Source: an uncultured Coriobacteriia bacterium (GTDB lineage Bacteria > Actinomycetota > Coriobacteriia > Coriobacteriales > QAMH01). From it: a stretch of 64,000 nt of DNA. The stretch spans positions 82 to 64,081 of the forward strand of contig CATLBX010000001.1 of assembly GCA_949879855.1 (NCBI GenBank), in the 5' to 3' direction. Shown here piece by piece: positions 2,695-62,431 of this stretch. Position 1 is the stretch's first letter; each line of letters begins with the position of its first letter. The position numbers were made by a program, and so were the translations under genes. The notes beneath the pieces were generated by a model that saw only the letters and a program-made list of their open reading frames with translations, searched no databases and was not told where the DNA came from.

Positions 2695-3897
2695 TCAAAA
2701 GCCGAGCACGGTCATGACCAGACAGCCTATCGTCAGCACGAACACTACCACGATGAGCACCCAGATGAGCACGGTGAGCAGACGGCGGTTGGTATACGCG
2801 CGCATGACGTGGCGGTCGGAGAGGATGAGCACCATGAAGACGAGCAGCACGGGCAGCAGCACACCGCTCACGAACTGCGCGATGAGCATGATGCTGATGA
2901 GGCTCACGTCGGGGATGAGCGTCACCACGACGCCGATGACGATCATGGCGGTATAGATGCCGCGAAACGCGGGGGCGTCGTTCCAGCCCCGGTCCACGCC
3001 GCGCTCCCAGCCGAACGCCTCGCAGATGGCACTCGAGGCCACGAGCGGGACGACGCAGGCGGCCAAGAAGCTCGCCGCGACGAGGCCGACGCCGAAGAGA
3101 ATCGTGGCGTATTGCCCGGCAATGGGGGTGAGCGCCGTTGCGGCGGCGGCCGCGCTATCCACGGCAATTCCCTGCGGATACAGAACGGTGCCCGTCGTGA
3201 TGATGATGAAGCCCGCGACGGCGCACGCGACGATCGCGCCGCCGATGGCATCGATGCGCTCGAGGGGAAGCTCGTCGGGTGTGACGCCCTTGTCCACGAC
3301 GTTGTTCTGCGTGAGGAAGATCATCCAGGGCGCGATGGTGGTGCCCACGGTGGCAATCACAAGGCTGATGAAGCTGGGATTGTTCTCGAAGTGGGGAATC
3401 ACGAGGGACAGGCCCACCTCGCCCCAGTTGGGCTGCGCGAGGAACGCCGCGACGATATAGGTCACGAACACGCAGCTGATGGCGAGGAACACCTTCTCGA
3501 CGCGCTTGTAGCTGCCTCCCATGACCAACAACCACACCACGACACCGGCAACGGGAACCGCGACGTACTTGCTCACGCCGAAAAGCTCCATGCCGGCGGC
3601 GATGCCCGCGAACTCCGAAAGCGTGGCGGCACCGCTCTCGATGAGCACGGCGATCATGGCCAACGCGGTCAGGCGCACGCCAAACTGCTCGCGGATGAGC
3701 GATGCGAGGCCCTTGCCCGTCACCGCGCCCATGCGCGAGGCGCCCTCCTGCACGATGGCGAGCATCACCATCATGATGGGTATAATCCACAGGGTCCCGT
3801 AGCCGAACTTGGCGCCGATGGTCGAATACGTCGAGATACCGCCGGCGTCGTTGCCCGCCATGGCGGCGACCACGCCGGGGCCGAGCGCCGCGAGCAC
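2695..3897 (-). CDS. NRAMP/SLC11-family transporter of the NRMT (NRAMP-related Mg2+ transporter) type
   Basis: About 11 TM segments. The helix-1 motif is NDAGG instead of DPGN. The helix-6 motif is GTTIAPW instead of GA..MPH (Asn->Gly, Ala->Thr, Met->Ala), the substitutions described for Eggerthella lenta EleNRMT. GTG start directly after an in-frame stop. Confidence 0.8.
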   Translation of the reverse strand: MLAALGPGVVAAMAGNDAGGISTYSTIGAKFGYGTLWIIPIMMVMLAIVQEGASRMGAVTGKGLASLIREQFGVRLTALAMIAVLIESGAATLSEFAGIAAGMELFGVSKYVAVPVAGVVVWLLVMGGSYKRVEKVFLAISCVFVTYIVAAFLAQPNWGEVGLSLVIPHFENNPSFISLVIATVGTTIAPWMIFLTQNNVVDKGVTPDELPLERIDAIGGAIVACAVAGFIIITTGTVLYPQGIAVDSAAAAATALTPIAGQYATILFGVGLVAASFLAACVVPLVASSAICEAFGWERGVDRGWNDAPAFRGIYTAMIVIGVVVTLIPDVSLISIMLIAQFVSGVLLPVLLVFMVLILSDRHVMRAYTNRRLLTVLIWVLIVVVFVLTIGCLVMTVLGF

Positions 3898-3987
3898 GAT
3901 GAGGACGCGGTTCCACTAGCGCGGGGCAACCATGCCCTGCTGCGAATCCCTGAGCTCTGTCAGCCTCTCCTACGTCACGGCACCACC

Positions 3988-5325
3988 CTAGCTGTTGAGC
4001 ATGAAGATGAGCACGCCGATGACGATGAGCAGCGCGACGATGATGCCGATGACCCACGGGCTCGAGATGGAACGCTGCTGCAGGTCCTCCTCGTGCTCCT
4101 CCTCCATGACGTCCATGGCGTCGTCGATGGTGACCACGCCCAGGATGACGCCCTGCTCGTCGACGACGGGAAGAGCGAGCAGGTCGTACTTGGCGATCAT
4201 CTGCGCGCATTCCTCCTGGTCAAGATCGGGATGCACGGTGATGAGCTCCTTGGTGCTGATCTCGTCGAGCGGTGTGTCGGGCTTGGCGATGACGAGGGTG
4301 CGCAGGCTGAGCACACCCGTGAGCACGTCGTTGTCGGACACGAGGTAGAGATAGTGAATGCTCTCCTGGTTCTCGTCCATCTGGCGTATGGCCTCGACCG
4401 CGTCCGCCACGGTCAGGTCATCGTTGACCGTGAGGAAGTCGGTGGTCATGATGCCACCGGCCGACTCCTCCTTGTAGCCGAGCAGCGAGCGCACCGAGGC
4501 CGACTCCTCGACGCCCATGAGACGCAGGAGTTTCTCGGCCTTGTCGTAGGGCAGGTCGCCGATGATGTCCGCGGCGTCGTCCGGATCCATCTCGTTGAGG
4601 ACGGCGGCGCCACGGGTTGTGGTCATGTCCTCGATGACATCGGCCTGGAACTCGTCCTCGAGCTCGGCCACCGCGTCTGCCGCCTGGCCGGCATCGAGTT
4701 TGTCGAAGACCGCCTGACGATGCTGCGGCTCAAGCTGCTCGATGATGTCGGCGACGTCGGCCGGATGCATGTCATGCAGGCGCTTGTGGCTCACCGAGAG
4801 CTTGATCTGCGACATATCGCGCTCGATGAGCTCCATGTAGTTCCACGCGATGAGGCGTTCCTTGAGCGGGTGGCCAAAGGCGGTGGCAACGGCGTTTACC
4901 GCCTTCTCGAGATGCGGGGATATGCCGAAGAGCAACCCGCGGACGCCTGTCTCGGCGCCGAGCAGGCGCAGCCCCGCCGGGCTGTCGGAAAGCTTGAGGT
5001 CATTGACGCGCACGACCTTCATGCCCTGCGTGTCGACAATCTGCTTGTCGAGCAGGTCGCGGGCGAGCAGCACCTCGTCCGGTTGCAGGTAGGAGAAACG
5101 AATGTCAGAGGAGGAGACGTTGAGACGTACGCAGGTGCCGTCGTAGCTATCCACATATTTGCGCCAGGAGATCATGAACGGGGTCTTGCGTGGGCCGATG
5201 AAGGCCAACGAGGTGACGCGGGGGAAGACCTCGCCCGTGGCGATGGCCAAATCGCTGATGGCACCGATCTGCTCGCCGTCCTTGTCGAAGACGGGCTGCT
5301 TGAGAATCTGACGCAGGTAGATCAT
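3988..5325 (-). CDS. PRC-barrel + MgtE N-domain + CBS-pair protein with a single C-terminal TM helix (MgtE-like cytosolic sensor module lacking the MgtE pore)
   Basis: N-terminus LKQPVFDKDGEQIGAISDL (PRC barrel). HPADVADIIEQL...DAADIIGDL (MgtE_N). GGIMTTDF... plus a second CBS. Ends WVIGIIVALLIVIGVLIFMLNS. Confidence 0.75.
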   Translation of the reverse strand: MIYLRQILKQPVFDKDGEQIGAISDLAIATGEVFPRVTSLAFIGPRKTPFMISWRKYVDSYDGTCVRLNVSSSDIRFSYLQPDEVLLARDLLDKQIVDTQGMKVVRVNDLKLSDSPAGLRLLGAETGVRGLLFGISPHLEKAVNAVATAFGHPLKERLIAWNYMELIERDMSQIKLSVSHKRLHDMHPADVADIIEQLEPQHRQAVFDKLDAGQAADAVAELEDEFQADVIEDMTTTRGAAVLNEMDPDDAADIIGDLPYDKAEKLLRLMGVEESASVRSLLGYKEESAGGIMTTDFLTVNDDLTVADAVEAIRQMDENQESIHYLYLVSDNDVLTGVLSLRTLVIAKPDTPLDEISTKELITVHPDLDQEECAQMIAKYDLLALPVVDEQGVILGVVTIDDAMDVMEEEHEEDLQQRSISSPWVIGIIVALLIVIGVLIFMLNS

Positions 5326-5513
5326 GCAGGTGGACTCCTCTATTCATACCTGTGCGCCACGCGAAAAGACGATGCGGGTGCGACCCGCGCGATGATGCTA
5401 TGCGTGGCGAAACGACGGCCCCACCGGGCCGCCTAGAGGAGGTCCGGAAAGGCTAACTACTGTGAGGTCGGGGTTTCACAGAGTTCCTTTCTTCTGGACG
5501 ACAAAAAAGCGTC
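5326..5513 (-). promoter_or_regulatory. About 190-nt structured leader/promoter region of the Mg-transport operon
   Basis: Minus-strand hairpins CGGCCC-GGTG-GGGCCG and GCGGGT-CGC-ACCCGC followed by a T-rich tract, nested in CGCCACGC...GCGTGGCG. No riboswitch class was recognised. Confidence 0.3.
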
Positions 5514-5608
5514 TGGCGGAGAGCTGGGGATTCGAACCCCAGATAGGGCTATCTAACCCTATACTCGCTTAGCAGGCGAGCGCCTTCAGCCAACTCGGCC
5601 AGCTCTCC
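5514..5608 (-). tRNA. tRNA-Ser (anticodon GCU), type II with long variable arm, encoded CCA
   Basis: Manual cloverleaf: acceptor GGAGAGC/GCTCTCC, anticodon loop CT-GCT-AA, T-arm TGGGG-TTCGAAT-CCCCA. Confidence 0.9.
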
Positions 5609-5674
5609 GTGCCAATTCGACGCAAATCGGAATGATAGCACAAACGACGGGTGGTGAAACACAGCGCGTTCGGG

Positions 5675-6067
5675 CTAGTCGAGCGGATTGCCCGGATGAG
5701 CGGCCGCTTGCATGCGGACCCACGCGACGCGCTTGGCCTCCGAATCGTCAAGGCACGTGGCAAAGCCGGGCACTGCGACAAGCGTGTAGCCCGTGACGCG
5801 CGCGGGCACGTCCGGGGAGAAAGCCTGCGCGTCAAGGGCGAAAGCCGTGCGCAGGGCATCAATGGAGGCATCGTCAATGGCGATGACCGCCCAGGGGTCG
5901 GTCTCGAAGACGAAGTGCCTGGGCTCGTCCACGTCGGCAAGCTGCACGATGGCGCAACCATCCGCGTAGCCAAGCGCCCGGGCGGCGGACTGCAAGGCAG
6001 AGGCCACCCGCACGTCGACGGGCAAGCTCGCGAGCACGACGAGCGTGGTGTCCTGAGCCTGCGTCAT
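5675..6067 (-). CDS. Hypothetical protein (130 aa)
   Basis: ORF with host-like codon usage. No recognisable motif. Confidence 0.45.
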   Translation of the reverse strand: MTQAQDTTLVVLASLPVDVRVASALQSAARALGYADGCAIVQLADVDEPRHFVFETDPWAVIAIDDASIDALRTAFALDAQAFSPDVPARVTGYTLVAVPGFATCLDDSEAKRVAWVRMQAAAHPGNPLD

Positions 6068-6075
6068 GGGAAGGA

Positions 6076-6327
6076 CTAGACGGCGGTGACGGTCACGCCC
6101 GTATCGGCGTCGTCACGCTCGATGGCGTCTTGCGCCTCGGTGAGCATCTCGCGCACGTTGTCGAGCTCCATCTGGATCTTCTGGAGCTGCATGGCAGTGC
6201 GCTCCATCTGGCCGTCGGACGCGAGGTGGTACATGCGGTGCGTCCAGCGCCTCGTGAGGGCGACCGTCTCGTCAATCTGGTTGACCGTATCCTTGAGTTG
6301 CTGGGTGTTCACGCCGTTTGCGCACAT
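6076..6327 (-). CDS. Hypothetical small helical protein (83 aa)
   Basis: ORF 9 nt upstream of the 5675-6067 gene on the same strand. Confidence 0.4.
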   Translation of the reverse strand: MCANGVNTQQLKDTVNQIDETVALTRRWTHRMYHLASDGQMERTAMQLQKIQMELDNVREMLTEAQDAIERDDADTGVTVTAV

Positions 6328-6416
6328 GGTTGACCTCCGATTGTGTTCACACGTATTGCGGAATCATAGCACGTCATGTCATGTGAGGGGCATGCGGCAA
6401 AGGGACGGTCCCATTC

Positions 6417-6478
6417 TGTCATTTCGAGCGAAGCGAACGCAGTGAGCGAAGTCGAGAAATCTCGATCTTGACCGCGAC
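6417..6478 (+). repeat. Intergenic repeat, type A (TGTCATTTCGAGCGAAGCGAACGCAGTGAGCGAAGTCGAGAAATCTCGATCTTGACCGCGAC)
   Basis: A near-identical copy in inverted orientation is at about 62527-62585. Related type-B copies are at 53457-53577, 54773-54810 and 62432-62510. Confidence 0.85.
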
Positions 6479-6743
6479 ACCCCCTATCATTCCGAGCGTG
6501 ATAGGCAAAACGATGGAGAGCGGCAAAAACCCACCAGTTGTGACACATCTCACATGCCCTGTTGGCAAAAACGGCCACGTTATGACCCATCATGCGGGCC
6601 ACAACGTGCTCATTCTTGCCAAATATGGGTCACAAGAACTGCTTTCATGTCAGTCTATGGGTCACAAACCCCTAATCCTTGCCAGCAACGCATTTTCGGT
6701 CGGGATGACAAGGGGTCCTGCGGTTGCTCGGTCGAAATGACAT

Positions 6744-6771
6744 TTGACATGCTCGGCTGCGGTGGTATTAT
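6744..6771 (+). promoter_or_regulatory. Sigma-70-type promoter of tRNA-Arg (TTGACA-N16-TATTAT)
   Basis: -35 TTGACA at 6744-6749 and -10 TATTAT at 6766-6771. The tRNA starts at 6786. Confidence 0.6.
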
Positions 6772-6785
6772 GTTCAGGCTTCATC

Positions 6786-6862
6786 GGGGCATTACCTCAG
6801 CTGGATAGAGGGACTGACTACGAATCAGTACGTCAGGGGTTCGAATCCCTTATGCCCCACCA
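6786..6862 (+). tRNA. tRNA-Arg (anticodon ACG), encoded CCA
   Basis: Acceptor GGGGCAT/ATGCCCC, anticodon loop CT-ACG-AA, T-arm AGGGG-TTCGAAT-CCCTT. Confidence 0.9.
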
Positions 6863-6870
6863 TGAAACGC
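6827..6870 (+). other. attL core (AGTACGTCAGGGGTTCGAATCCCTTATGCCCCACCATGAAACGC)
   Basis: Identical to 47256-47299. Identity breaks on both sides. Confidence 0.85.
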
Positions 6871-6873
6871 GCA

Positions 6874-6903
6874 GGCCAGAGGCTATCGTCTCTGGCCTTT
6901 TTT
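6874..6903 (+). terminator. Intrinsic terminator after tRNA-Arg (GGCCAGAG-N8-CTCTGGCC-TTTTTT)
   Basis: Hairpin plus T-run. A diverged counterpart follows attR at 47302-47334. Confidence 0.75.
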
Positions 6904-6907
6904 GTTG

Positions 6908-6925
6908 CTGGCACAAAATTGGCAC
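6908..6925 (+). promoter_or_regulatory. 18-bp motif CTGGCACAAAATTGGCAC, candidate integrase arm-type site (copy 1)
   Basis: An identical 18-mer is at 47134-47151. Both lie just inside the prophage ends and would flank attP in the circular form. Confidence 0.4.
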
Positions 6926-7055
6926 CAAATAACTCAACTCGTGACTTTTTATGCAAAAAGCGGGGCGCCTTTAGGCGCCCCGCTATCTTGTCTGCAAGAC
7001 AAAGTAGAGCAGCGACGAGACGCCCTAACTTATACGATTTCGCGATTCGTATAAG

Positions 7056-7934
7056 TTAGTCAGCGGCTTGCCATGCGATTCCCTCATTGGTCCATCCTGC
7101 GTCTACGAGCGCGGACCACTCGGACTCGTCAGCCGTGAAGTGATGCGCCCCCGTGTTCGGGTTGTAGACGCGGTAGACGGGTTTGCCATAACGCATGTCG
7201 GCGAATGTGACGGTCTCGGCAGTCCATCCTGCCTTGACGAGGTTGCTGGCCTCGTCGTAGTTCACCGTGTAATGGTGCTGGCCAGCGTTTGGATTGTAGA
7301 GACGGTACACGACACTGCCTCTGTCTGCCCCCATGAATGCCACGCCCTCCCGACTGTAGTTCTCAGGAAGCGCCTCGTATTCTGCCTCCGATGCAGTCAA
7401 GAAATGGTCGTCGGTGTCTGCGCGGTAGGCGCGGTAAACCGGGTAGGTTCCGGTGGGAATGTCTATGCGTATCAAGTCGCCCTCCTTCTCGGTGTTGGGA
7501 TATAGGCCAACAACTTCCTCGAACGGGAAGTTATCGCCCGGACAGTTGGTATCGAGCACGTCCTTATGCCTCAGAACGGTCTCGATGCCGTACTTGGCCT
7601 TGAGCATCGTTATGAGGTCTCGTCCAGCCAAGATTTGCGTCTGCGGCATCTTTTCGCGCATGTAGTCGCCCTCGAAGCAGATTCCGATGCTGTCGTAGTT
7701 ACTGCCCTCGGCGTGCGCTCCGATTGCCCATTCGGGTCGCATCGAGTAGACGGTGCCGTCCTTGCGCACGAGGAAGTGGTAACCCGCTCCGGCCCATCCC
7801 CTGCCCTCGACGTGCCAGCGCTGGATGTCCTCGGGCGACGCGGTAGATGCCTCGGCGTGGTGGACGATGATCCGATTCGTCGCGCTCCTGCGAGACAGCG
7901 AGCCAAACGGCAAGTTCGCGTCAATCACTCGCAT
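7056..7934 (-). CDS. Endolysin: N-acetylmuramoyl-L-alanine amidase (Amidase_2/PGRP type) + C-terminal YRxYNPNxGxHxxT wall-binding repeats
   Basis: N-terminus IIVHHAE...GAGYHFLV...GAHA...NCPG. The C-terminal half has three repeats of the same family as the host surface proteins. Confidence 0.85.
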   Translation of the reverse strand: MRVIDANLPFGSLSRRSATNRIIVHHAEASTASPEDIQRWHVEGRGWAGAGYHFLVRKDGTVYSMRPEWAIGAHAEGSNYDSIGICFEGDYMREKMPQTQILAGRDLITMLKAKYGIETVLRHKDVLDTNCPGDNFPFEEVVGLYPNTEKEGDLIRIDIPTGTYPVYRAYRADTDDHFLTASEAEYEALPENYSREGVAFMGADRGSVVYRLYNPNAGQHHYTVNYDEASNLVKAGWTAETVTFADMRYGKPVYRVYNPNTGAHHFTADESEWSALVDAGWTNEGIAWQAAD

Positions 7935-8362
7935 GGTAGATCACCAACCTCAGTGCCCTTGGCAATCGCTTCGGAGCTCATCGCGTCATCGCGCTTGGCA
8001 AGCGTCCTGATGACCGGAAGCTTCGCGATGTCAGGATTGAGCACGCAGAGGTTCTCGACGATGCTGACGATCTCCGTGAGGACGATGAACGCGCACACGG
8101 CGGTGACCGCCGGAATCTCGGGCGCCGTCATGCCGATGCCGAGCTCTGCCACCTCGAAGTTGATGTAGACGGTCGCGACCTCGTAGGCGGCGGCCAGGGC
8201 TATGAGACCGAAGTACCCCGCCTTGTGCCACAGGCCCTCGCGCAACTTGACGCTGTTGATGTCCCTGTCCTTTGCCGCCGCGGCGACTCCACTGATGATG
8301 TCGAGCACCATCATCACCGTGGCAATCGCTATGGGATGCCACGGTATCTCGAATCCGAACAT
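7925..8362 (-). CDS. Holin (phage holin, multi-TM)
   Basis: 145 aa with 3-4 TM segments and a charged C-terminus. Overlaps the endolysin start by 10 nt. Confidence 0.75.
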   Translation of the reverse strand: MFGFEIPWHPIAIATVMMVLDIISGVAAAAKDRDINSVKLREGLWHKAGYFGLIALAAAYEVATVYINFEVAELGIGMTAPEIPAVTAVCAFIVLTEIVSIVENLCVLNPDIAKLPVIRTLAKRDDAMSSEAIAKGTEVGDLPCE

Positions 8363-8446
8363 GTCTTCTTCCTTTCCTTCGTGGTTTGCTATGCAAAACC
8401 GCCCAGACAGCCAGGCGGAAATTGCCTATGCGAATGGAGATGCGAA

Positions 8447-9424
8447 ATGGACGCAATGAAACTCACGGTTGAACAAATAACGACCGACCACTACTTGCCC
8501 GAGAAGCGCAAGCGCAGGCGCACCAACACCGTCGATGGCTACGAGAGCAGCATCGGGCTCTACGTCATCCCGCAATGGGGCGATATGGCGATCTCTCAGA
8601 TAGGCAGGGACGACGTACAGGACTGGGTCGAGCGTCTTGCCGGCACAAAGGCCGGCCCAGGAGGTGCCTGGAAAGCCTACAAGTGCCTGCGCCAAATCAT
8701 CCGCTGGGCCATGAGCAAGTGGGGCCTGTTCGTGGCCGACCCGACATTGGGCATCGAGAAACCGCGAAAGCCCGCCTACAAGCCAGAAGTGCTCACGCCC
8801 CGGCGCCTGAAGAGGCTCATCCGCGGATTCGTCGGATGCGAGCAGGAGCCGACGCTGATCATCGAGGCCGACCTGGGAACGCGTCCGGGGGAGTGCTACG
8901 TCATGCGCTGGGAGTGGATCAACTGGCGCACGGGCCACGTGCCGATCGCCTCGACGCTGCAGCAGGCGTCAGACGGCGTGCGCGAATGGCCGACGAAGAC
9001 GGCAAAGGGCGAGCGCGACGGCTATCTTTCTCCGTGGGCGCTCGACCGCCTGCACCAGATCTGGGTGCAGCGAGGACGGCCGCGCGGGAGAATCATCGGG
9101 GACCTCAAGCCATCGCAGATCGCATACCGCATCCAGCGGTGGATAAAGGTTCATAGGTTACCGAAGATAACGATGAAGAACTTACGGCATACCTGGGGAA
9201 CCATCGCCGCGCAGTCTGGTGTGCCCATCGAGACGGTGTCGGCGATGATGGGGCACTCGGACATCCAGACGACGTACCGTTACTACTACGCGCTCACTGC
9301 CGCAACCGCGCGAAAGGCAAAGCGGCGCATGGCAAGAAGCATCCTCGGCAAGACGTGCTCCGAGATGTACAAGGGTATCGTGTTGCCGCTCGCACCAGCG
9401 GAGTCAGTGTCAAAAGCCGCGTAG
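8447..9424 (+). CDS. Tyrosine recombinase (325 aa), proposed shufflon-specific (Rci-like role)
   Basis: Catalytic signature GTRPGE (R), LRHTW (HxxR), MGHS, TTYRYY (Y). GGAG RBS 8 nt before ATG 8447. Its stop codon is 3 nt from the inverted site copy at 9428. Convergent with the tail-fibre gene. Confidence 0.85.
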   Translation: MDAMKLTVEQITTDHYLPEKRKRRRTNTVDGYESSIGLYVIPQWGDMAISQIGRDDVQDWVERLAGTKAGPGGAWKAYKCLRQIIRWAMSKWGLFVADPTLGIEKPRKPAYKPEVLTPRRLKRLIRGFVGCEQEPTLIIEADLGTRPGECYVMRWEWINWRTGHVPIASTLQQASDGVREWPTKTAKGERDGYLSPWALDRLHQIWVQRGRPRGRIIGDLKPSQIAYRIQRWIKVHRLPKITMKNLRHTWGTIAAQSGVPIETVSAMMGHSDIQTTYRYYYALTAATARKAKRRMARSILGKTCSEMYKGIVLPLAPAESVSKAA

Positions 9425-9427
9425 GGC

Positions 9428-9594
9428 ATTCCTTGTCCCAAGGCTTGGTTAGCTCACCTCACGGCGAGAAAATCAACATATGGAGCGACGGAAGCGGCTA
9501 CATCACGATCATGCTCACGGCCCCAGGAGGCGTGTGGCGGCGAGTGAACATCATGAAAGACGGTAGACTCTTGTGGACGGACAGCACGAGCTAG
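9428..9594 (+). other. Silent tip cassette C0 (only one on + strand): SLSQ-GLVSSPHGEKINIW...GRLLWTDSTS* (50 aa variable)
   Basis: Open frame from the site core in the conserved phase. No start codon of its own at the core. Confidence 0.8.
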
Positions 9595-9730
9595 GCAAGC
9601 TGTGTGTAGCCTATCAAATTGACGCGTGAGTAGTCCGTATACCAGTATATTCGCTTCGTGCTCTGTTGAACCCAATAGTAGATCCTGTCATTTTGTCCCG
9701 CGGCCTGCAACGCGCTTCGGGACAAGGAAT
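9591..9730 (-). other. Silent tip cassette C1: SLSR-SALQAAGQNDRIYYWVQQ...LIGYTQLA* (41 aa)
   Basis: Manually translated and open from core to stop. The stop shares the CTAG palindrome with the C0 stop. Confidence 0.8.
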
Positions 9731-9908
9731 CACCTTAGCTGCCGCTTTATTTCTCCATCGAGAATTACTTCAAAAGCTGGCATCGATTGCATCGTGCGAA
9801 CTTTAATTGTAATGATATGACCGTCAGGGGTTTTATATTCTTTCGTGATTCCTGCTTCACCGTCAGAGTACCAGGTGCCGTGAGTTTCCGACGCACGGGA
9901 CAAGGAAT
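9730..9908 (-). other. Silent tip cassette C2: SLSR-ASETHGTWYSDGEAGITKEY...DGEIKRQLR* (54 aa)
   Basis: Open from the core. The TGA stop forms the 5' flank of the next site (TGATTCCTTGTCCC). Confidence 0.8.
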
Positions 9909-10086
9909 CACTTTGGGAAGCGAGAGACCCATTCTCCGGTGCCCTGCCTCGTATATATGAGCATCCCTTGCACGGTGTGAAACCCGACCCTCATAGTCTC
10001 GCTGCCGATGGAAAAATCTTCCCACGCGTAAAACTCGCCGCTCGTCTGCTTCTCAGAGCCAAATCGAGGAGTTTGGGACAAGGAAT
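9908..10086 (-). other. Silent tip cassette C3: SLSQ-TPRFGSEKQTSGEFYAWEDF...GTGEWVSRFPK* (54 aa)
   Basis: Open from the core. The TGA stop abuts the next site. Confidence 0.8.
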
Positions 10087-10087
10087 A

Positions 10088-10341
10088 TCAACTGCCTGTC
10101 ATGACATGTATGACCTGCAAGCCATTGATCACGGTTCCGGGAGCGCCAAAAACGCCCCTGGCAAACAGCGCGAATGGCACTTTCGGCGACATGGAATTGT
10201 ATGTGACTATCGAGCTAAACGCTATCCTGCGTGCTTCCTCGGCTGTGATTCCACCCATGCTAGAGAACGCCAATGCGCCGCTGTCGGGTATCGTTATGCT
10301 GGCATAGGTAACCGTCTTCGTTGTGTATCGGGACAAGGAAT
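10088..10341 (-). other. Silent tip cassette C4: SLSR-YTTKTVTYASITIPDSGALAF...LQVIHVMTGS* (79 aa)
   Basis: Matches the track ORF 10088-10369 from ...GDSLSR onward. Confidence 0.8.
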
Positions 10342-10477
10342 CACCCAGGAAAGAAATCAGCATGTTCACCAGTCTTCGACGTAAGCCTGATGAAGGGTGT
10401 GCCGTCGTCTTTGGCGGTGAACCTGACCGACGCTATACCCAAGCCGTCATCCCTGTAAGAGATGCGGGACAAGGAAT
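10341..10477 (-). other. Silent tip cassette C5: SLSR-ISYRDDGLGIASVRFTAKDDGTPFIRLTSKTGEHADFFPG* (40 aa)
   Basis: Manually translated. It contains no start codon and is absent from the ORF track. The TGA stop abuts the next site. Confidence 0.8.
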
Positions 10478-10673
10478 CACTTTGCTAGATTTACATAGCC
10501 GATTACCTTGCCTGCAACGCTGTCGTGTACCTGCATTCTGTCTTTCGTAATGATAAAAGCGTAGCTTTCGGTTTCGCCCGTTGCTGTTACTTGCATTAAG
10601 TGTGATGACATACCCATGCCGATGCTTGCGTCTATCGCGTTGCTTTGCATTCTGGCTTTGCGGGACAAGGAAT
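10477..10673 (-). other. Silent tip cassette C6: SLSR-KARMQSNAIDASIGMGMSSH...KVIGYVNLAK* (60 aa)
   Basis: Extends the track ORF 10477-10668 upstream to the core in the same frame. Confidence 0.8.
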
Positions 10674-10674
10674 G

Positions 10675-10829
10675 TCAATGCCACACAACTTCGCTTGTCG
10701 AGTCCAAGCAGTAAATCTCCTTGTAGCCAACTCCCTTGAGTACGAAACCTATCACTGGCAACCCTGCGCTCGATTTGTAAATCCGAACATTCGTTATCTC
10801 GTCATCTATCTGTATCTGGGACAAGGAAT
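10675..10829 (-). other. Silent tip cassette C7: SLSQ-IQIDDEITNVRIYKSSAGLPVIGFVLKGVGYKEIYCLDSTSEVVWH* (46 aa)
   Basis: Manually translated and open. Stop is 1 nt before the next core. Confidence 0.8.
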
Positions 10830-10830
10830 G

Positions 10831-11087
10831 CTACGAGGGGGAGAAAGTGACCCATTCGCTCCATGCGTTTCCCGATCTGTTGCGCGTGCATACATTCGAT
10901 CCCCAGTTGGGAAAGTAGACCTGCCTTTGCCATCCTCCTCCCATCGGAGATGACAGTTGCAGACAGAGACCGTAGTCGGCGACATTGCTCGGCTTATTGA
11001 GGGTTTCAGCGACGCAGACGATGACCATTGCATCCACGTTGTTGAGATCTACGGCTCTCGGTGTTTCGGATAATCGGGACAAGGAAT
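10831..11087 (-). other. Silent tip cassette C8: SLSR-LSETPRAVDLNNVDAMVIVC...GNAWSEWVTFSPS* (80 aa)
   Basis: Extends the track ORF 10831-11082 to the core. The C-terminal WSEWV resembles the WSDWV of the expressed tip. Confidence 0.8.
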
Positions 11088-11090
11088 GCC

Positions 11091-11260
11091 CTACGATTTA
11101 ATCCTGTCATCGGAGAAGAGCGCAGATGATCCCCATCTGCCGTCCGACAATACGACGGTCAGTCCCACTGAACCATCTTTTCTCGCAAAGATGCGGGCTT
11201 CGGCAATTGACAAAAAGATATCGGAAGGAGACTCGAGAGAGACGCTGCGGGACAAGGAAT
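11091..11260 (-). other. Silent tip cassette C9: SLSR-SVSLESPSDIFLSIAEARIFARKDGSVGLTVVLSDGRWGSSALFSDDRIKS* (51 aa)
   Basis: Manually translated. It has no Met and is absent from the ORF track. The TAG stop is 3 nt before the next core. Confidence 0.8.
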
Positions 11261-11525
11261 CATTTGCCGATTGCCAGCCAATGCACGTAGACGTTTTCTA
11301 TCGCTGTCGTAGACCTGTTCGATAAGATGATTCCACATTTCGTCGCACTCACGCCGTATGCATGAGCAGTTAGATACTGACTCACCCCGCGACCATCAAC
11401 GATGTAGGGAATGAAGGCGATTAGCTGATTAAAAGGACGGTCAAAAGTCACGACTTCGGCCAAAGTTCCATTCGGCACAGCTTCGCTAAACGTGTACACT
11501 CCCCACTGCATCTGGGACAAGGAAT
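11260..11525 (-). other. Silent tip cassette C10: SLSQ-MQWGVYTFSEAVPNGTLAEV...NVYVHWLAIGK* (83 aa)
   Basis: Part of the track ORF 11260-11625 (..RHSLSQMQWG..). The TGA stop abuts the next site. Confidence 0.8.
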
Positions 11526-11528
11526 GCC

Positions 11529-12203
11529 TCAAAGCTGAACCCAGTCGCTCCACGGCTTTGTATTGATCCTGCGGCGAATGTACATGCCACCAGTCTCTGT
11601 CATGAGTGCGATCTGCCAAACCCATGATGTTGACATGTTAAGAGCAAGGCAGACGCCGTACTGTCCCGCAACAGGAAGGTGCTTGCAATCACTCTTGAAT
11701 GCGGATAGCCCGATGGTATGCAAGTCAAGATCGTCAACAAAATTCGATGTTTTGAATGGCGATTGGGACAAGGAATCCCGGAGGGGTTGAGAAAGCTTCG
11801 CATCTGTCACCGCGCCGTCCTCGATCATGCCGGTCGTGACCAACGTGATGTCATCGGTAGAGCCAATCTTGACCCATGAACCGCCCTGGTAAATCCATTT
11901 CGTCCACACGCCGTCACCGACGGGCACGAAATAGATGCAACTTGTCGATGGGTTCGCGATTGTCGGCTTGCCAGTCGATGCGTCGTATTCGCCTGATGCG
12001 CAGAAATGCTGCGCCCACACGCCCAGGCTCGCGAGATCATCATAGGTGAGAAGACGCTTCACGTTTCCCTTGTCGAACGCGACGTTGAGGCCCTTTCCGT
12101 CTGGGGATGTCGGGTCGTTTGCGCTGAAAACCGCCGCCTGCCCCGGCAACAGCGTATCCGGGTCGAAATCGTTGTAATCAGCAGATTCGAAAGTGACTGC
12201 CAT
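11529..12203 (-). CDS. Tail fibre / receptor-binding protein (224 aa): constant N-terminal 143 aa + currently fused tip cassette C11
   Basis: The ...ITLVTTGMIEDGAVTDAKLSQPLRDSLSQ junction is encoded over site 11765-11776. The tip is SPFKTSNFVDD...KPWSDWVQL*. It is the last structural gene before the array. Confidence 0.8.
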   Translation of the reverse strand: MAVTFESADYNDFDPDTLLPGQAAVFSANDPTSPDGKGLNVAFDKGNVKRLLTYDDLASLGVWAQHFCASGEYDASTGKPTIANPSTSCIYFVPVGDGVWTKWIYQGGSWVKIGSTDDITLVTTGMIEDGAVTDAKLSQPLRDSLSQSPFKTSNFVDDLDLHTIGLSAFKSDCKHLPVAGQYGVCLALNMSTSWVWQIALMTETGGMYIRRRINTKPWSDWVQL

Positions 12204-44843: not shown

Positions 44844-44915
44844 GAGCGAGCCCCGCGCAACGGGCGGCCACCCAGCGCGAGGCTCCAAATCGAACCAACC
44901 GAACAAATCGGAAGG
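44844..44915 (+). repeat. Left copy of a ~72-74-bp direct repeat (hairpin GAGCCCCGCGC...GCGCGAGGCTC + CAAATCGAACCAACCGAACAAATCGGAAGG)
   Basis: Aligns with 45885-45958 with a few mismatches. Confidence 0.8.
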
Positions 44916-45177: not shown

Positions 45178-45876
45178 ATGACAAGGACGGCCGTGCTGGT
45201 GGACGGAGGGTTCTACCGCAAGCGAGCGGAGCACTACTGGGGCGAGCGGAAGGCCGCCGAAAGAGCAGACGAGCTCATGAAATACGTCTTTCGCCACCTG
45301 GACAAGAAGGACGGTCCCTGCAGAAGGGAGCTCTACCGCATCTTCTACTACGACTGCCCCCCGATGGAGAACACCGTGTTTCATCCCCTGAAGGGGAACA
45401 TCGAGTTCCGCAAGCTCGACGGGTACACGTGGGCCCTGAGCTTCTTCGACGAGCTCAAGAAGTGCAGGAAGGTGGCGCTTCGCATGGGCAGGCTCTCTGA
45501 GGTGGGCATGCACTACGAACTCACGCCGGATGCGACCAAGAAGATCGTGGCGGGAAGGAAGAAGGTCGAGGATCTCGAGGATTCCGATTTCCGCGTAGCT
45601 TTCAAGCAAAAGGGCGTTGACATGCGCATGGGCGTTGACATCTCGTCACTTGCCTACGAGGGCATAGTCGACCAGATAATCCTGATCGCAGGCGACAGCG
45701 ATTTCGTGCCAGCTGCCAAGGCGGCGAGGCGCAAGGGCATCGACTTCATCCTCGACCCCATGGGAAACCAGATCAGCGACGACCTTTTCGAGCACATAGA
45801 CGGCATGGAGTCGTTCATCCGGGAGGGCGACCCGTTGAAGCCCAAGAAGAAGGCGAAGCCGAAGCCGAAGAGCTGA
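45178..45876 (+). CDS. NYN-domain (LabA/DUF88-like) putative ribonuclease (232 aa); prophage moron
   Basis: RTAVLVDGGFY at the N-terminus and IILIAGDSDFVPAAKAARRKGIDF. Own RBS GGAGG and an upstream TTGACG-N17-TTAGAT promoter-like element near 45017. Confidence 0.7.
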   Translation: MTRTAVLVDGGFYRKRAEHYWGERKAAERADELMKYVFRHLDKKDGPCRRELYRIFYYDCPPMENTVFHPLKGNIEFRKLDGYTWALSFFDELKKCRKVALRMGRLSEVGMHYELTPDATKKIVAGRKKVEDLEDSDFRVAFKQKGVDMRMGVDISSLAYEGIVDQIILIAGDSDFVPAAKAARRKGIDFILDPMGNQISDDLFEHIDGMESFIREGDPLKPKKKAKPKPKS

Positions 45877-45884
45877 CGAAAACA

Positions 45885-45958
45885 GAGCGAGCCCCGCGCG
45901 TACGGGCGGCCACCCTGGCGCGGGGCTCCAAATCGAACCAACCGAACGAATCGGAAGG
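45885..45958 (+). repeat. Right copy of the ~72-74-bp direct repeat
   Basis: Perfect hairpin GAGCCCCGCGC-N18-GCGCGGGGCTC followed by the same CAAATCGAACCAACCGAAC.AATCGGAAGG. Confidence 0.8.
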
Positions 45959-45973
45959 CAGGTGCATCATACC

Positions 45974-47125
45974 ATGCAGGTGAAGTCATCGGGAATCCTC
46001 AGCCTCGAGAAGGACAAGCCGAACGGCAAGTGCCGCAAGTGGCGTCTGTGGGCAAACACCGCAGAGGAGGGGCGAAAGTTCAGGCGCTTCACGGGGACGT
46101 ACTCCATGGCCAGGCGAGCGCTCGACGACTTCGTGCGCGAGCTCGGCGCGGTCATCCCCAATGGGGACACCCTCGCCGCCTACGCCGAGGCACGGGTGGA
46201 GGCACGCGCCGCATCGGGCGACATATCGCCGAACACCATCGACAAGGAGCGCCGCAACGTGCGCGCGATCGCGCGCGCCCCCTTCGCCGGCATGAGGATG
46301 GACGAGATCGGCCCGGCGGACTGCCGCGAGTCGCTCGCCTGGATAAAGGCGAACCCCCAGCGCCCGAACCTCGTGCGCGAGGAGGGCCTGTCGAACACGA
46401 CGATGCGCGGCATCTACCGCTTCGTGCGACAGACCTTCGGGCAGGCCGTCGACGACGAGCTTCTCGCCCGCAACCCCATGGCTAAGGTCAAGGACCCGCG
46501 GGACGACTCGCCCGAGGTCGAGGCGCTCCCGTGGAGAGAGCTCGAGCGCATCCTGGACCTGCTCGACAAGCAGCCCATGTCCGGATACGTCATGGCGCTC
46601 TACCTCATCGTGTGCGACGCGCTTCGGCGCGCCGAGTCGGTCGCGGTGCTCGACGCCGAGGTACAGGCGTCGATGTTCAGGGTCTCGCAGGCCGTAAAGG
46701 AGGCCGACGGCACGGTCGACGACCCGAAGTCCGAGGCAGGCAAGCGCGACATGCCGGTGCTCCCCAGGCTATGGGGAAAGGTCGGCGAGATGCGGGCGTG
46801 GAAGAGGGCGAGGGGCCTTGCCGACGCGCTCCCCCTGGCGTGCAACTACAAGGGCGGCGTGATCAGGCCCCAGAACCTCTACAGGTGGTGGAAGCGAATA
46901 ACCGTGGGGACCGATTTCGAGGACGTGGGGCTGCACCAGATCCGCCACAGCAACCTCTCGCACGTCGCGCGGCGCATGTCGGCCTACGACCTGATGCGCT
47001 ACGCCGGATGGAGCTCGCTCGAGCCCACGCGCACCTACATCCACGACGACTACGCGACGCTGTCGAGATGCTACTACGAGGCGTTCGGCATGGAGGGAAG
47101 CGACTCGATCAGGCTCGCCGCGTAG
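45974..47125 (+). CDS. Prophage integrase (tyrosine recombinase, 383 aa from ATG 45974; GTG 45962 possible)
   Basis: ALRRAE (R), HQIRHS (HxxR), YAGW, TRTYIH (Y). Ends 130 nt before attR. Confidence 0.85.
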   Translation: MQVKSSGILSLEKDKPNGKCRKWRLWANTAEEGRKFRRFTGTYSMARRALDDFVRELGAVIPNGDTLAAYAEARVEARAASGDISPNTIDKERRNVRAIARAPFAGMRMDEIGPADCRESLAWIKANPQRPNLVREEGLSNTTMRGIYRFVRQTFGQAVDDELLARNPMAKVKDPRDDSPEVEALPWRELERILDLLDKQPMSGYVMALYLIVCDALRRAESVAVLDAEVQASMFRVSQAVKEADGTVDDPKSEAGKRDMPVLPRLWGKVGEMRAWKRARGLADALPLACNYKGGVIRPQNLYRWWKRITVGTDFEDVGLHQIRHSNLSHVARRMSAYDLMRYAGWSSLEPTRTYIHDDYATLSRCYYEAFGMEGSDSIRLAA

Positions 47126-47133
47126 GGCGTCTC

Positions 47134-47151
47134 CTGGCACAAAATTGGCAC
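47134..47151 (+). promoter_or_regulatory. 18-bp motif CTGGCACAAAATTGGCAC, candidate arm-type site (copy 2)
   Basis: Identical to 6908-6925. Confidence 0.4.
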
Positions 47152-47255: not shown

Positions 47256-47299
47256 AGTACGTCAGGGGTTCGAATCCCTTATGCCCCACCATGAAACGC
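47256..47299 (+). other. attR core (displaced 3' fragment of tRNA-Arg)
   Basis: 44/44 identity to 6827-6870. Lacks the tRNA 5' half. Confidence 0.85.
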
Positions 47300-47843: not shown

Positions 47844-48626
47844 CTAATGGAAGCAAAGCCTGCAAGGCTCGAGACCTCTGGCGCGCGCCGCGTCGATGCT
47901 TATGGGCGTTGTGTTGCTGCGCTTCGTCGAGGAGCAGGATGCGCGATGATATTTAGTACCGGTTTTGGTAATGTACACGGTATCTGACACCGACGGTCCC
48001 GATGACGAACCAGCGTTGGAAGATCCGCTTGTATCGGGTACGGGAGCGGGGGCAATCGTTCTTCCCTCGCCAATGGCATACCAGCCAATGCCTTCTCCGC
48101 GCCATCCGATGCTGACGAGTGAGTCGTTCTCGCCCTTAGATGTTGTGTAGTTATGAGAACCCGAATTGTTGCGACGAGCGCTGGGGTTAACATTGGGGTT
48201 GAACTGGCGATAGAGCGGAATATCCTTACGACTGTCCGAAGAATACCAGCCGATGCCCTCGTCTCTCCACCCGACGCGAACCAGCTCATTGCGCTCCCCA
48301 ACATCCATGGTGTAGTGATGATCAGTACCCGAATACAGACGATAGACCGGCGTTTCCGACCATGCGGGTGCAACCCAACCGATGCCCTCATAGGTCCAAC
48401 CCACGCTCACAAGGCTGTCCTTCTCTGCCGTATCTGCAGTGTAGAAATGCTCGCCAGAGTTCGGATTGTATACGCGGTGCATCTCCTGGCTACCGGCATC
48501 CAGCGCATGAGCGTTTGTGGAGCTAAGCGAGAGTGCGGCAAACGCCAGCAGAGCAAACGCCAACATGAGCAATGCCATAACGGCGGATCTGGAACAAGTG
48601 CGTGAAAAGCATGATGTATCTCGCAT
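47844..48626 (-). CDS. Secreted protein: YRxYNPN wall-binding repeats + C-terminal Cys motif (KYHRASCSS...EPCRLC)
   Basis: Signal peptide, four repeats and a Ser/Gly linker. Confidence 0.75.
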   Translation of the reverse strand: MRDTSCFSRTCSRSAVMALLMLAFALLAFAALSLSSTNAHALDAGSQEMHRVYNPNSGEHFYTADTAEKDSLVSVGWTYEGIGWVAPAWSETPVYRLYSGTDHHYTMDVGERNELVRVGWRDEGIGWYSSDSRKDIPLYRQFNPNVNPSARRNNSGSHNYTTSKGENDSLVSIGWRGEGIGWYAIGEGRTIAPAPVPDTSGSSNAGSSSGPSVSDTVYITKTGTKYHRASCSSTKRSNTTPISIDAARARGLEPCRLCFH

Positions 48627-49903: not shown

Positions 49904-51502
49904 TTAGCGTCCCTCGATTCCATACCAGGCAATGCCCTCATCGTTCCAACCAAGGCCGACGAGATGATTGTGCTCGACCTCACTGGTCGTGTAGTTGTGG
50001 TTGTTCGCGTACTCGTTGGGGTTGTACTCGCGCATGAGCGGCGTGTATCCGCCCGAGTACCACCTGACGCCCTCGTCGATCCATCCCAGGCTCACGAGGT
50101 TGTTCTTCTCGACGCTTGACATCGTGTAGTGATGCTCGCCGGGCAGGTTAGGATTGTAGAGGCGGTAGACGGGCTGGCCCGCGGACGGGGCAATCCAGCC
50201 GATGCCCTCGTCATTCCACCCGTTGACGATGCAGTTGTCGCGCTCGACGGTGCTCGAGGTGTAGAAGTGCTCGCCGCTGTTGGGGTTGTAGACGCGGTAC
50301 ATCGTGACGCGCTCTCCCTCCGGCTCCGTGGGCCTGGGGGCCTCCGGGTCATCGGGGATGTAGCGGCTGTAGCTATCGGCGATGTTGTTGCGGTCGTTGG
50401 CGATCTGCGTGGCCGTGAACGTCTTGTCCAGAGCCGCCGAGCGCCACTCGCCCGCGGGCAGCGTCGTGAGCACGCCCTTCGTGGCACCCTTGAAGCTGAA
50501 GCCCGTACCCAACTTCACCTCTGCGAGGCCGTCACACCCGCCGAACATCGTGTAGGCGCCGAGCACCATCCTCGTCACCTTGGACGTGTCGAAGTTCGAG
50601 AGGTCCAGGGAGCGCAGGGCCTTGCAGCCGTAGAACATGCCCTCCATGCTGATGACGTCCGAGGTGTCGAAGTGGGAGACGTCAAGCGCCGAAAGCGACG
50701 AGCATCCGGCGAACATGCTTCCCATGACCGCGACCTTCGACGTGTCGAACTTGGAGACGTCGAGGGAGCCAAGCGAGACGCACTGCCAGAACATGCTATC
50801 CATGTGAGTCACGCGCGAGGTGTCGAACTTGGAGACGTCAAGGGACGAAAGACGCGGGCAGCTTGCGAACATGCCGGTCATGACCTCGACCTTGGAGGTG
50901 TTGAAGCTGGATATGTTGAGGGACGAGAGCATGGTGCAGGACTCGAACATCGCCTGGGTCTTGATGACGTTCGCGGTGTTGAAGTTCGAGACGTCAAGCG
51001 ACGGAAGCGCCGCGCATCCCTTGAACATCATGGTCATGTCGGTGACGTTTGTCGTGTTGAAGTGCTTGACGTCGAGAGAGGCAAGCCTCGTGCAGCCAAG
51101 GAACATGCTCTCCATGTTCGTGGCGCGCGAGGTGTCCAACCCCGACAGGTCCATGGACGTGATGAACGCGCAGTCGGCGAACATGCCCGAAAGGTTCTCG
51201 TTTGCCTTGACGCCCGGCTTGATGACGACGGCCTTGATCGCACTGCGGTTGCCGAGCCATGGCGCGCTGTTGTTCGTGTGGTACTCGAGATTGCCGAGCG
51301 TGCCGCTTGACCCGTTGGTGGGTGCGATCGTGAGCGTGCCCGAGCCGTCGATGGTCCAGGTGCACTCGCCGCTCGTTCCCTTGGCGGGGGCGTCCGCGTG
51401 AGCCGACAGGGCCGCGACGGGCACGAGGGACAACGCCAGCGCGAGCGTGCAGAAGAGCGCGATGATGCCCTTCAACGGCGTGGTTTGCGTCTTGGTGGTC
51501 AT
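49904..51502 (-). CDS. BspA-type/DUF285 leucine-rich-repeat surface protein + C-terminal wall-binding repeats
   Basis: About 9 repeats of L.SLD.S.FDTS.VT.M..MF..C, a signal peptide and three C-terminal YRLYNPN repeats. Confidence 0.8.
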   Translation of the reverse strand: MTTKTQTTPLKGIIALFCTLALALSLVPVAALSAHADAPAKGTSGECTWTIDGSGTLTIAPTNGSSGTLGNLEYHTNNSAPWLGNRSAIKAVVIKPGVKANENLSGMFADCAFITSMDLSGLDTSRATNMESMFLGCTRLASLDVKHFNTTNVTDMTMMFKGCAALPSLDVSNFNTANVIKTQAMFESCTMLSSLNISSFNTSKVEVMTGMFASCPRLSSLDVSKFDTSRVTHMDSMFWQCVSLGSLDVSKFDTSKVAVMGSMFAGCSSLSALDVSHFDTSDVISMEGMFYGCKALRSLDLSNFDTSKVTRMVLGAYTMFGGCDGLAEVKLGTGFSFKGATKGVLTTLPAGEWRSAALDKTFTATQIANDRNNIADSYSRYIPDDPEAPRPTEPEGERVTMYRVYNPNSGEHFYTSSTVERDNCIVNGWNDEGIGWIAPSAGQPVYRLYNPNLPGEHHYTMSSVEKNNLVSLGWIDEGVRWYSGGYTPLMREYNPNEYANNHNYTTSEVEHNHLVGLGWNDEGIAWYGIEGR

Positions 51503-56945: not shown

Positions 56946-57106
56946 CGTCAGCTTCCCTTCTCGAAGCTCCCGCCATTTCGTTCGCCGCATGCGAAATGGT
57001 TATTTTACTTCGCTCAGCTCCCGGTTGAGACCCTCATAACCCAAGCTAACGGACGCATGGAGGCGTCTGGCTCCCTAATGGAAGGCGAGCCTCTATGGAG
57101 ACCGCG

Positions 57107-62409: not shown

Positions 62410-62431
62410 CGTCTTCCCTTCGTACATCTTT

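Follow-up and report, generated by a model that had tools for sequence, protein, structure and literature searches.

We analysed a 64,000-nucleotide (nt) stretch of DNA from an uncultured Coriobacteriia bacterium (GenBank assembly GCA_949879855.1, contig CATLBX010000001.1, positions 82 to 64,081), referred to below as the window. Within a prophage of this window, a putative tail-fibre gene is made up of a constant N-terminal part, Rc, and a C-terminal tip, T1, and is followed by an array of 11 further tips that each begin with the same 12-bp site (Table 1). A gene for a tyrosine recombinase, rin, lies at the far end of the array. Copies of this locus in public assemblies carry the same DNA in several orders, and we consider it highly probable that the tail module of this ~40-kb prophage, in a Coriobacteriales gut bacterium, contains an active shufflon (multiple-inversion system) of the Rin type.

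Table 1. Features of the tail-fibre locus, in window coordinates (aa, amino acids).
Feature	Position	Strand	Remarks
Rc, constant N-terminal part (142 aa and the first base of codon 143) of a predicted tail fibre/receptor-binding protein gene	11777..12203	-	
Site 1 (11765-11776) and T1, 82 aa including the site-coded DSLSQ	11529..11776	-	Tip expressed in the window
Site 2 and T2 (88 aa)	11260..11525	-	
Site 3 and T3 (56 aa)	11091..11260	-	67% identity to a tip of the sister array L043
Site 4 and T4 (85 aa)	10831..11087	-	
Site 5 and T5 (51 aa)	10675..10829	-	Rc-T5 fusion found verbatim (P0175, SRR18464300)
Site 6 and T6 (65 aa)	10477..10673	-	Rc-T6 fusion found verbatim on 6 contigs (P0178)
Site 7 and T7 (45 aa)	10341..10477	-	93% identical to a tip in L043
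Site 8 and T8 (84 aa)	10088..10341	-	87% identical to a tip in L043
Site 9 and T9 (59 aa)	9908..10086	-	Rc-T9 fusion found verbatim (P0187; L033/L080, L081)
Site 10 and T10 (59 aa)	9730..9908	-	
Site 11 and T11 (46 aa)	9591..9730	-	Half of the convergent 'pivot'
Site 12 (only inverted copy) and T12 (55 aa)	9428..9594	+	Other half of the pivot; Rc-T12 fusion found verbatim (P0001, 3 contigs)
rin, tyrosine recombinase of 325 aa, armless (Xer-like, two-domain), presumed invertase	8447..9424	+	Pfam Phage_integrase and Phage_int_SAM_3

ATTCCTTGTCCC occurs 12 times in the window as an exact match and never with one mismatch; 0.25 copies are expected, and none of 100 shuffles reached 12. Eleven copies are on the minus strand (9719, 9897, 10075, 10330, 10466, 10662, 10818, 11076, 11249, 11514 and 11765). 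The sole plus-strand copy, at 9428, is inverted and begins 3 nt past the stop codon of rin; rin and the fibre gene are convergent. The 224-aa fibre gene (12203..11529) contains the copy at 11765, read there as ..LR-D-SLSQ.., so that 142 constant residues and an aspartate are followed by the tip. In the phase xAT TCC TTG TCC C, all 12 sites open frames of 45 to 88 codons, and the crossover site is translated as (D)SLS(Q/R). The probability that all 11 silent frames are open by chance is ~1e-13, given the local base composition. The cassette frames stop 0 to 3 nt ahead of the next site, or with a TGA that overlaps it (five cases). Ten single-tip segments were tested; their site-phase frames have a terminal stop only, or no stop where the TGA enters the next site. 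The stop codons of T11 and T12 overlap at 9591-9594. An original prediction, made from the sequence alone, had described the 12 perfect sites, the uninterrupted site-phased frames and the copy inside the fibre gene, and our analysis bears it out on these points. It had also placed the distal site correctly, 3 nt from the stop of a convergent recombinase gene, but it did not mention that the site at 9428 and its cassette face the opposite way.

The strongest evidence for shuffling comes from natural isomers of the locus. When the fibre protein was used as a query, one match, P0001, proved to be identical to the window's fibre over its first 147 residues and to end in T12, the tip encoded by the plus-strand cassette. 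We fetched contigs encoding P0001, the window's fibre or the exact window recombinase, and later those of the Rc-T5, Rc-T6 and Rc-T9 proteins, which added further orders. The locus copies in these other assemblies differ by 0 to 3 mismatches per 5 to 15 kb, yet they occur in at least seven arrangements. Six isomers could be reconstructed (Table 2), and a seventh rin-proximal order (<T11 <T7 <T8 rin) is present in ERZ28617362 and ERR11569540. For isomer D, a partial contig of a second run is consistent with the complete one. The isomer segments match the window at 99.4 to 100% identity (one 1-nt mismatch, in one contig), and Rc is 100% identical in all isomers and is always followed by a forward site. 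All breakpoints fall at the 12-bp site, and every one of the six reconstructed isomers retains 12/12 tips.

Table 2. Natural isomers of the array (> and < mark the forward and reverse blocks).
Isomer	Order	Source
A	Rc T1..T11> <T12 rin	Window; GCA_948811325.1
B (whole-array flip)	Rc T12> <T11..<T1 rin	SRR28237148/58/59, three runs
C	Rc T1-5 T8 T12> <T11 <T10 <T7 <T6 <T9	SRR14167429, one run
D	Rc T9 T10 T11> <T12 <T8..<T1 rin	SRR31563909, one complete contig
E	Rc T6 T7 T8 T3 T5 T12> <T11 <T1 <T2 <T10 <T9 <T4 rin	SRR19221402/04/12/15, four runs
F	Rc T5 T9 T7 T1 T6 T11> <T12 <T3 <T2 <T8 <T10 <T4 rin	SRR18464300, one run

The junctions also appear at the level of protein. With Rc-T1 and Rc-T12 already found, we looked up the other ten predicted Rc-tip proteins as exact sequences. 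Five of the 12 fusions (T1, T5, T6, T9 and T12) exist verbatim in public data; those to T5, T6, T9 and T12 had been predicted from the window alone and were then found exactly. Gene calls in GCA_948811325.1 and SRR14167429 include the Rc-T1 protein as well. An exact 25-mer scan for the Rc-site junction in Joint Genome Institute (JGI) metagenome contigs and IMG/VR gave no match. With its DNA occurring in at least seven orders and all breakpoints at the site, the locus demonstrably shuffles. These arrangements and the five verbatim fusions uphold the originally predicted constant part with 12 swappable in-frame tips. The minimal number of inversions separating two isomers ranges from 1 (A-B, B-D) to 10 (D-F), so that up to 10 inversions stand against 0 to 3 substitutions per 5 to 15 kb. 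The switching rate would be slow enough to leave a single order dominant in an assembly, yet it is high relative to point mutation.

We propose the following mechanism. Only the tip joined to the 142 codons of Rc would be made, and the 12 alternative 3' ends would be interchangeable because they begin with the same site. Rin would recombine any forward site with any reverse site, inverting the DNA between them. Since there is no site between the convergent T11 and T12, every inversion would span this pivot, which would confine forward tips to the Rc side and reverse tips to the rin side. This forward-block/reverse-block rule holds in all isomers and in ~40 related arrays, and T11 and T12 are adjacent and convergent in every isomer. 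From the state in the window (11 forward sites, one reverse), inversion between site 1 and site 12 would fuse Rc to T12 and turn the other 11 tips; after this whole-array flip, each of the turned tips would be one further inversion away from expression. In a model with n single-tip units and the pivot, all 2(n+1)! states were reached for n ≤ 6. Extrapolated to the 10 single-tip units of the window, the model would allow 2 × 11! (~8e7) DNA orders, encoding 12 protein products.

The family profile of Rin matches the XerC-like structure 4a8e and XerD (1a0p), and its aligned catalytic residues are R146, K184, K244 (in place of His-I), R247, H270 and Y279. The original prediction of R/HxxR/H/Y residues therefore needs amendment: R146, K184, H270 and Y279 stand, whereas the motif is KxxR (K244-N-L-R247) and not HxxR. 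Rin and the prophage's own integrase (45962-47122) are separate proteins that are barely similar to each other (BLASTP E 0.004); that integrase and the attachment (att) repeats sit at the prophage ends. Among the rival explanations, the one that survives best accepts the inversions as real and assigns them to another agent, either a trans-acting invertase of the host or homologous recombination between the repeats. We regard this as improbable. It draws on the fact that catalysis by Rin is itself deduced, and that trans-acting invertases exist, such as Mpi of Bacteroides (cited in PMC6109161). However, rin always abuts the first site (within ~110 nt), down to a recombinase identity of 32% in Bifidobacterium phage PMBT6, and the rin module travels with the array between phages that have different Rc genes. 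The outer bases of the site, ATTC and TCCC, are conserved across the family while its centre drifts. Furthermore, RecA-dependent exchange is inefficient over a length of only 12 bp.

A second alternative is that the array is a static family of small tail genes, that is, independently translated paralogues in which the repeat encodes a protein motif. Gene callers do annotate several cassettes as small genes from internal starts, two cassettes have a weak GAGG or AAGG upstream, and every cassette has an in-frame TTG within its site. The original claim that the cassettes lack a 5' start codon accordingly holds for ATG and GTG and fails for TTG. In relatives, however, the position of this TTG codon is taken by ATA, GTA or CAG, which are not usual bacterial starts, so it is not a conserved start codon. 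Four tips (T3, T5, T7 and T11; the original count was three) contain no methionine. Twelve nucleotide-identical copies in otherwise unrelated tips are unlike the evolution of a protein motif, and genomes that are otherwise identical carry the cassettes in different places and orientations, with fusion to Rc exactly at the site. We therefore consider static genes very unlikely.

We give equally little credence to irreversible selection of tips, by deletion between direct sites and not by reversible inversion. Eleven of the 12 window sites are direct repeats, which are a deletion substrate for most tyrosine recombinases, and with arrays spanning 2 to 12 sites, occasional deletions over evolutionary time are possible. 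Yet the six reconstructed isomers keep 12 tips, inversions alone explain all differences between them, and the inverted site beside rin is positionally conserved in ~40 relatives. Recombination thus appears to be restricted to inversion, with deletion between direct sites avoided.

Least probable of all is that the alternative orders are assembly artefacts at a repeated 12-mer in an array of fixed order: the evidence does consist of assemblies and not raw reads, and the supporting contigs are mostly short, metagenomic and often end inside the array, but a 12-bp repeat with unique flanks is shorter than the assembler k (31 for Logan), so that real k-mers span each junction, identical isomers B and E recur in three to four separate runs, two contigs of the same run join into a full 12-tip order (E, L078 and L038; F, L079 and L040), and all orders obey the forward-block/reverse-block rule.

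Contig ends offer a further view of switching. Logan contigs end 18 nt (L039, L076 and L077) or 0 nt (L037) past a site, and others end 22 to 250 nt past one. Ends at 18 and 0 nt are where a k = 31 assembly would be expected to branch, which is suggestive, although no more than that, of a within-sample mixture. Similarly, 13 of 23 genome contigs with a Rin homologue (L007, L010, L011, L014-L017, L019, L020, L022, L025, L028 and L029) end within 1.4 kb past the rin stop, eight of them within 150 nt. Such assembly breaks at arrays fit mixed orientations in the sequenced populations. Taken with the ratio of inversions to single-nucleotide polymorphisms, the breaks lead us to infer that switching is ongoing within populations.

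Several observations weigh against an active shufflon of receptor-binding tips. Among the samples analysed, none has two different Rc-tip fusions, and runs with neighbouring accessions share one isomer. Public protein data yielded no match for the fusions to T2, T3, T4, T7, T8, T10 and T11 (7/12). Searches of Pfam, PHROGs and PDB chains gave Rc no family or structural assignment, and an AlphaFold2 model of the expressed fibre, built from a 6-sequence alignment, had a confidence (pLDDT) of 48 and was unusable. Of the ten tips scanned (all but T7 and T11), nine lack a credible family match, which leaves a single tip with one, and three tips are just 45 to 51 aa long, short for a binding head. 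Rin is the presumed catalyst of the inversions, and the tips are predicted to alter receptor or host specificity.

The assignment of the target to the tail is contextual. On the minus strand, a tape-measure gene is followed by genes for a 906-aa protein, a tail protein (PHROG 1887) and a 337-aa protein, then by the fibre gene and the array; the convergent rin (+) and a holin and amidase endolysin (-) complete the region, so that the Rc gene sits between the tail genes and the lysis cassette. T2 matches the Pfam family PF21882 (tail fibre gp53-like C-terminal) at 25.2 bits, against a cut-off of 24.9, and weakly matches H_lectin. T4 is the only tip detectably similar to another (31% identity to T1, E 1e-4). 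In close relatives, Rc carries a BppU_N domain. Together, the position in the tail module, the T2 match and the relatives' BppU_N point to a tail fibre or receptor-binding protein.

The locus belongs to a family of such modules. We found more than 219 Rin homologues and ~40 related arrays (Eggerthellaceae, Collinsella and IMG/VR contigs). These arrays begin 5 to 110 nt past the rin stop and have one site pattern in common, '+..+ -..-'; their sites fit ATTC-NNNN-TCCC. From 97 sites in 19 arrays we derived the consensus R-K-S-ATTC-n-n-T-r-TCCC-R. Among these 97 sites there is no dyad symmetry, no second conserved arm and nothing conserved outside the consensus. One array outside the consensus pattern carries ATTCGCAGTCCC, which is why we give the general form of the site as ATTC-NNNN-TCCC. 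The site centre varies between arrays and never within one array. The centre may thus be the strand-exchange overlap, matched between partners and not read by the protein. Rin identity is a poor guide to the site, and we rejected it as a predictor: the Rin P0131, 87% identical to the window's, uses ATTCGCAGTCCC (centre GCAG), whereas the Rin P0132, in the same 90%-identity cluster as the window Rin, uses the window's site (centre CTTG).

Most relatives have arrays of 2 to 5 tips; L088 has 6, and three others have 7, 8 and 9. A 12-site array also occurs in a sister phage (L043/L044; European Nucleotide Archive (ENA) ERZ28615097 / SRR15910066), in which Rc is 95% and Rin 74% identical to the window's. 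All 12 sites of this array (L043 8428-10956; 5 forward and 7 reverse) are ATTCCATATCCC, a change of the Leu codon to Ile, and homologues of tips in the window account for only 5 of its 12 (38 to 93%). To judge from this comparison, the sites changed in concert between the sister phages while the cassettes turned over. A stretch of ~185 nt without a tip beside site 10085 of L043 may be a decayed cassette. In L082 (ENA ERZ28750499 contig_20658) and L088/L089 (ENA ERZ28617859, ERZ27296953), the constant gene encodes a BppU_N protein of 500 or 269 aa, and the arrays have 3 sites (ATTCGCAGTCCC) or 6 sites (ATTCCTTGTCCC); L088 and L089 differ at one junction. The occurrence of a window-cluster Rin in phages with BppU_N constant genes shows that rin and its array form a module that is mosaic between phages.

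Our more specific proposal is that the system is inversion-only although 11 of its 12 sites are direct repeats, that it uses a site centre that is unread but matched between partners, and that it is the largest phage receptor-binding-protein shufflon yet seen. We advance this tentatively, as a possibility slightly short of an even chance.

The closest published system is the Rin shufflon of the Bifidobacterium breve and B. longum prophages Bb423phi1, Bl157phi1 and Bl30698phi1, which has five tips and the site rix, TTCCCTAACCC (Mavrich 2018, PMC6109161), and in which inversions have been seen in reads (PMC6109161). The window shares with it an Rc gene, tandem promoterless variable (Rv) tips, a convergent rin by the lysis cassette, an armless Xer-like recombinase distinct from the integrase, very dissimilar tips and inversions at the sites. 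The rix site and the window site, TTCCTTGTCCC, are identical at 8/11 positions, and both are short, asymmetric and in-frame. In contrast, the window has 12 tips and not five, its host class is Coriobacteriia, and its Rc is unrelated in sequence. A second published system lies closer in host. Clade 1 prophages of Eggerthella lenta carry a Rin shufflon with an 8-bp repeat, ttccgtat (Buttimer 2022, PMC8778435). That bacterium is of the same class, and ttccgtat is the core of ATTCCGTATCCC. In genomes of Adlercreutzia, Gordonibacter and Enteroscipio, as well as in IMG/VR contigs, arrays of ATTCCGTATCCC abut Rin homologues 39 to 71% identical to the window's. The weak H_lectin match of T2 recalls the H-type lectin-like domains of the E. 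lenta tips. Unlike the window, the ATTCCGTATCCC arrays differ at two central site positions and hold 3 to 7 sites, as against 12.

Homology of Rin to the published systems was assessed through two proxies, the ATTCCGTATCCC-array recombinases (39-71%) and PMBT6. Rin is 32% identical (E 4e-39) to the 'integrase' of PMBT6, its best match among 50,697 phage records apart from one slightly better record of an uncultured gut siphovirus. Behind this 'integrase', PMBT6 (L006, MK932884.1; 4462-6858) has four (A/T)TTCCGTAACCC sites (5340 +, 5758 -, 6049 - and 6352 -), arranged as in the window, and its array also holds small minus-strand genes. The PMBT6 tail region thus looks like an unannotated Rin-type shufflon, and we found no description of this array in the papers searched. 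Both proxies point to membership of the window locus in the Rin-shufflon group.

The Rin shufflon has thus been published, also in Coriobacteriia, and the novelty claimed in the original prediction, which knew of no 12-tip tyrosine-recombinase version in a siphophage of a high-GC Gram-positive gut lineage, fails: a shufflon of this kind is on record from prophages of such bacteria (PMC6109161, PMC8778435). The locus defines no new kind of system; it is an unusually large Rin-type tail-fibre shufflon. What is new here is its size of 12 tips, the demonstration from public data of many isomers without cassette loss, the evidence that the array only inverts although 11 of its sites are direct repeats, the pivot rule, and a free site centre that changes in concert across an array.

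The original prediction had also likened the layout to pilV-shufflon-rci of plasmid R64, which stands only as an analogy of function: to judge from the plasmid matches listed, the recombinase is not of the Rci type, sfx-like sites are absent, and the sites are arranged differently. R64 (IncI) also uses a tyrosine recombinase, which exchanges an adhesin's C terminus through multiple inversions at short, asymmetric crossover sites; R64 is inversion-only, as the window's system appears to be, and in both the recombinase gene lies at the far end of the array. In R64, however, the segments are two convergent partial open reading frames (ORFs) between inverted sites, self-flipping and giving 7 variants, whereas the window has just one two-ORF unit, its other units being one tip and one site, and two opposed blocks around one pivot. 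Its target is a phage tail protein and not the PilV pilus adhesin. The sfx consensus, GTGCCAATCCGGTNNGTGG (PMC5430464), has no match in the window at up to 3 mismatches. A tblastn search of 72,556 plasmids with Rin (E ≤ 1e-5) matched 66 records, with no IncI plasmid, no Escherichia or Salmonella and no rci or shufflon-recombinase annotation among the listed matches (51 were unlisted). Going by these listed matches, the missing site GTGCCAATCCGGTNNGTGG and the prophage tail-module target, the locus is not of the R64 type.

Site-specific inversion also exchanges tail-fibre C termini, and with them the host range, in the Gin (Mu), Cin (P1) and Min (p15B) systems, and Min, with 6 crossover sites, is multi-site as well. 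Those inversions are enhancer- and Fis-dependent. They use a serine recombinase, and Gin and Cin have 2 tips. We rejected this type because the sole recombinase of the locus belongs to the tyrosine family. Diversification by a diversity-generating retroelement was also dropped: the locus has no reverse transcriptase or template repeat and exchanges whole cassettes instead.

The prophage spans ~40.4 kb between 44-nt direct repeats (6827-6870 and 47256-47299), formed by the 3' part of a tRNA-Arg(ACG) gene (6786-6862), and its own integrase is at the far end, beside an att repeat. An exact 18-nt repeat, CTGGCACAAAATTGGCAC, lies just inside both prophage ends (6908-6925 and 47134-47151). A 65-nt direct repeat (80% identical; 44851-44915 and 45894-45958) precedes an NYN-domain gene (45178-45873) and the integrase gene, and may be a shared regulatory element. 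In a promoter and terminator scan of the array, matches were no commoner than in shuffles. The endolysin (7056-7934) ends in a DUF5648 domain (PF18885). This domain also occurs in at least 7 large host surface-type proteins of the window (BspA-LRR, CAP and InlB-repeat; 769-2241, 47847-48626, 49907-51502, 51529-53274, 53598-54728, 54816-56990 and 60439-62427). DUF5648 is probably a cell-wall-anchoring module of this lineage that was borrowed by the phage lysin.

For annotation, our findings indicate that the tips are not genes, that contigs tend to break here, and that the 'integrase' beside the lysis genes is presumably an invertase. If our proposal on inversion and the site centre is true, the locus would be a natural test case for orientation sensing by an armless tyrosine recombinase, and the family would provide mutually orthogonal site sets (CTTG, CATA and GCAG) for near-identical recombinases. 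A state with 11 direct repeats and no deletions sharpens the directionality question raised by Mavrich et al. (PMC6109161).

The host context bears on what the tips might do. Compared with window positions 3170-9439, L034 (ENA ERZ28617362 scaffold_864) has a phage that is 99.7% identical beside a host flank (MgtE/Nramp region) that is only 88.7% identical. One phage therefore lysogenises two species-level host lineages, and the second host background, that of L034, carries the sister phage L043 too (97.9% identical flank). The presence of one phage in two host lineages fits, without proving, a host-range function. We thus find a gut prophage that remodels its tail-fibre gene far faster than point mutations accrue, while keeping its repertoire of 12 tips intact.

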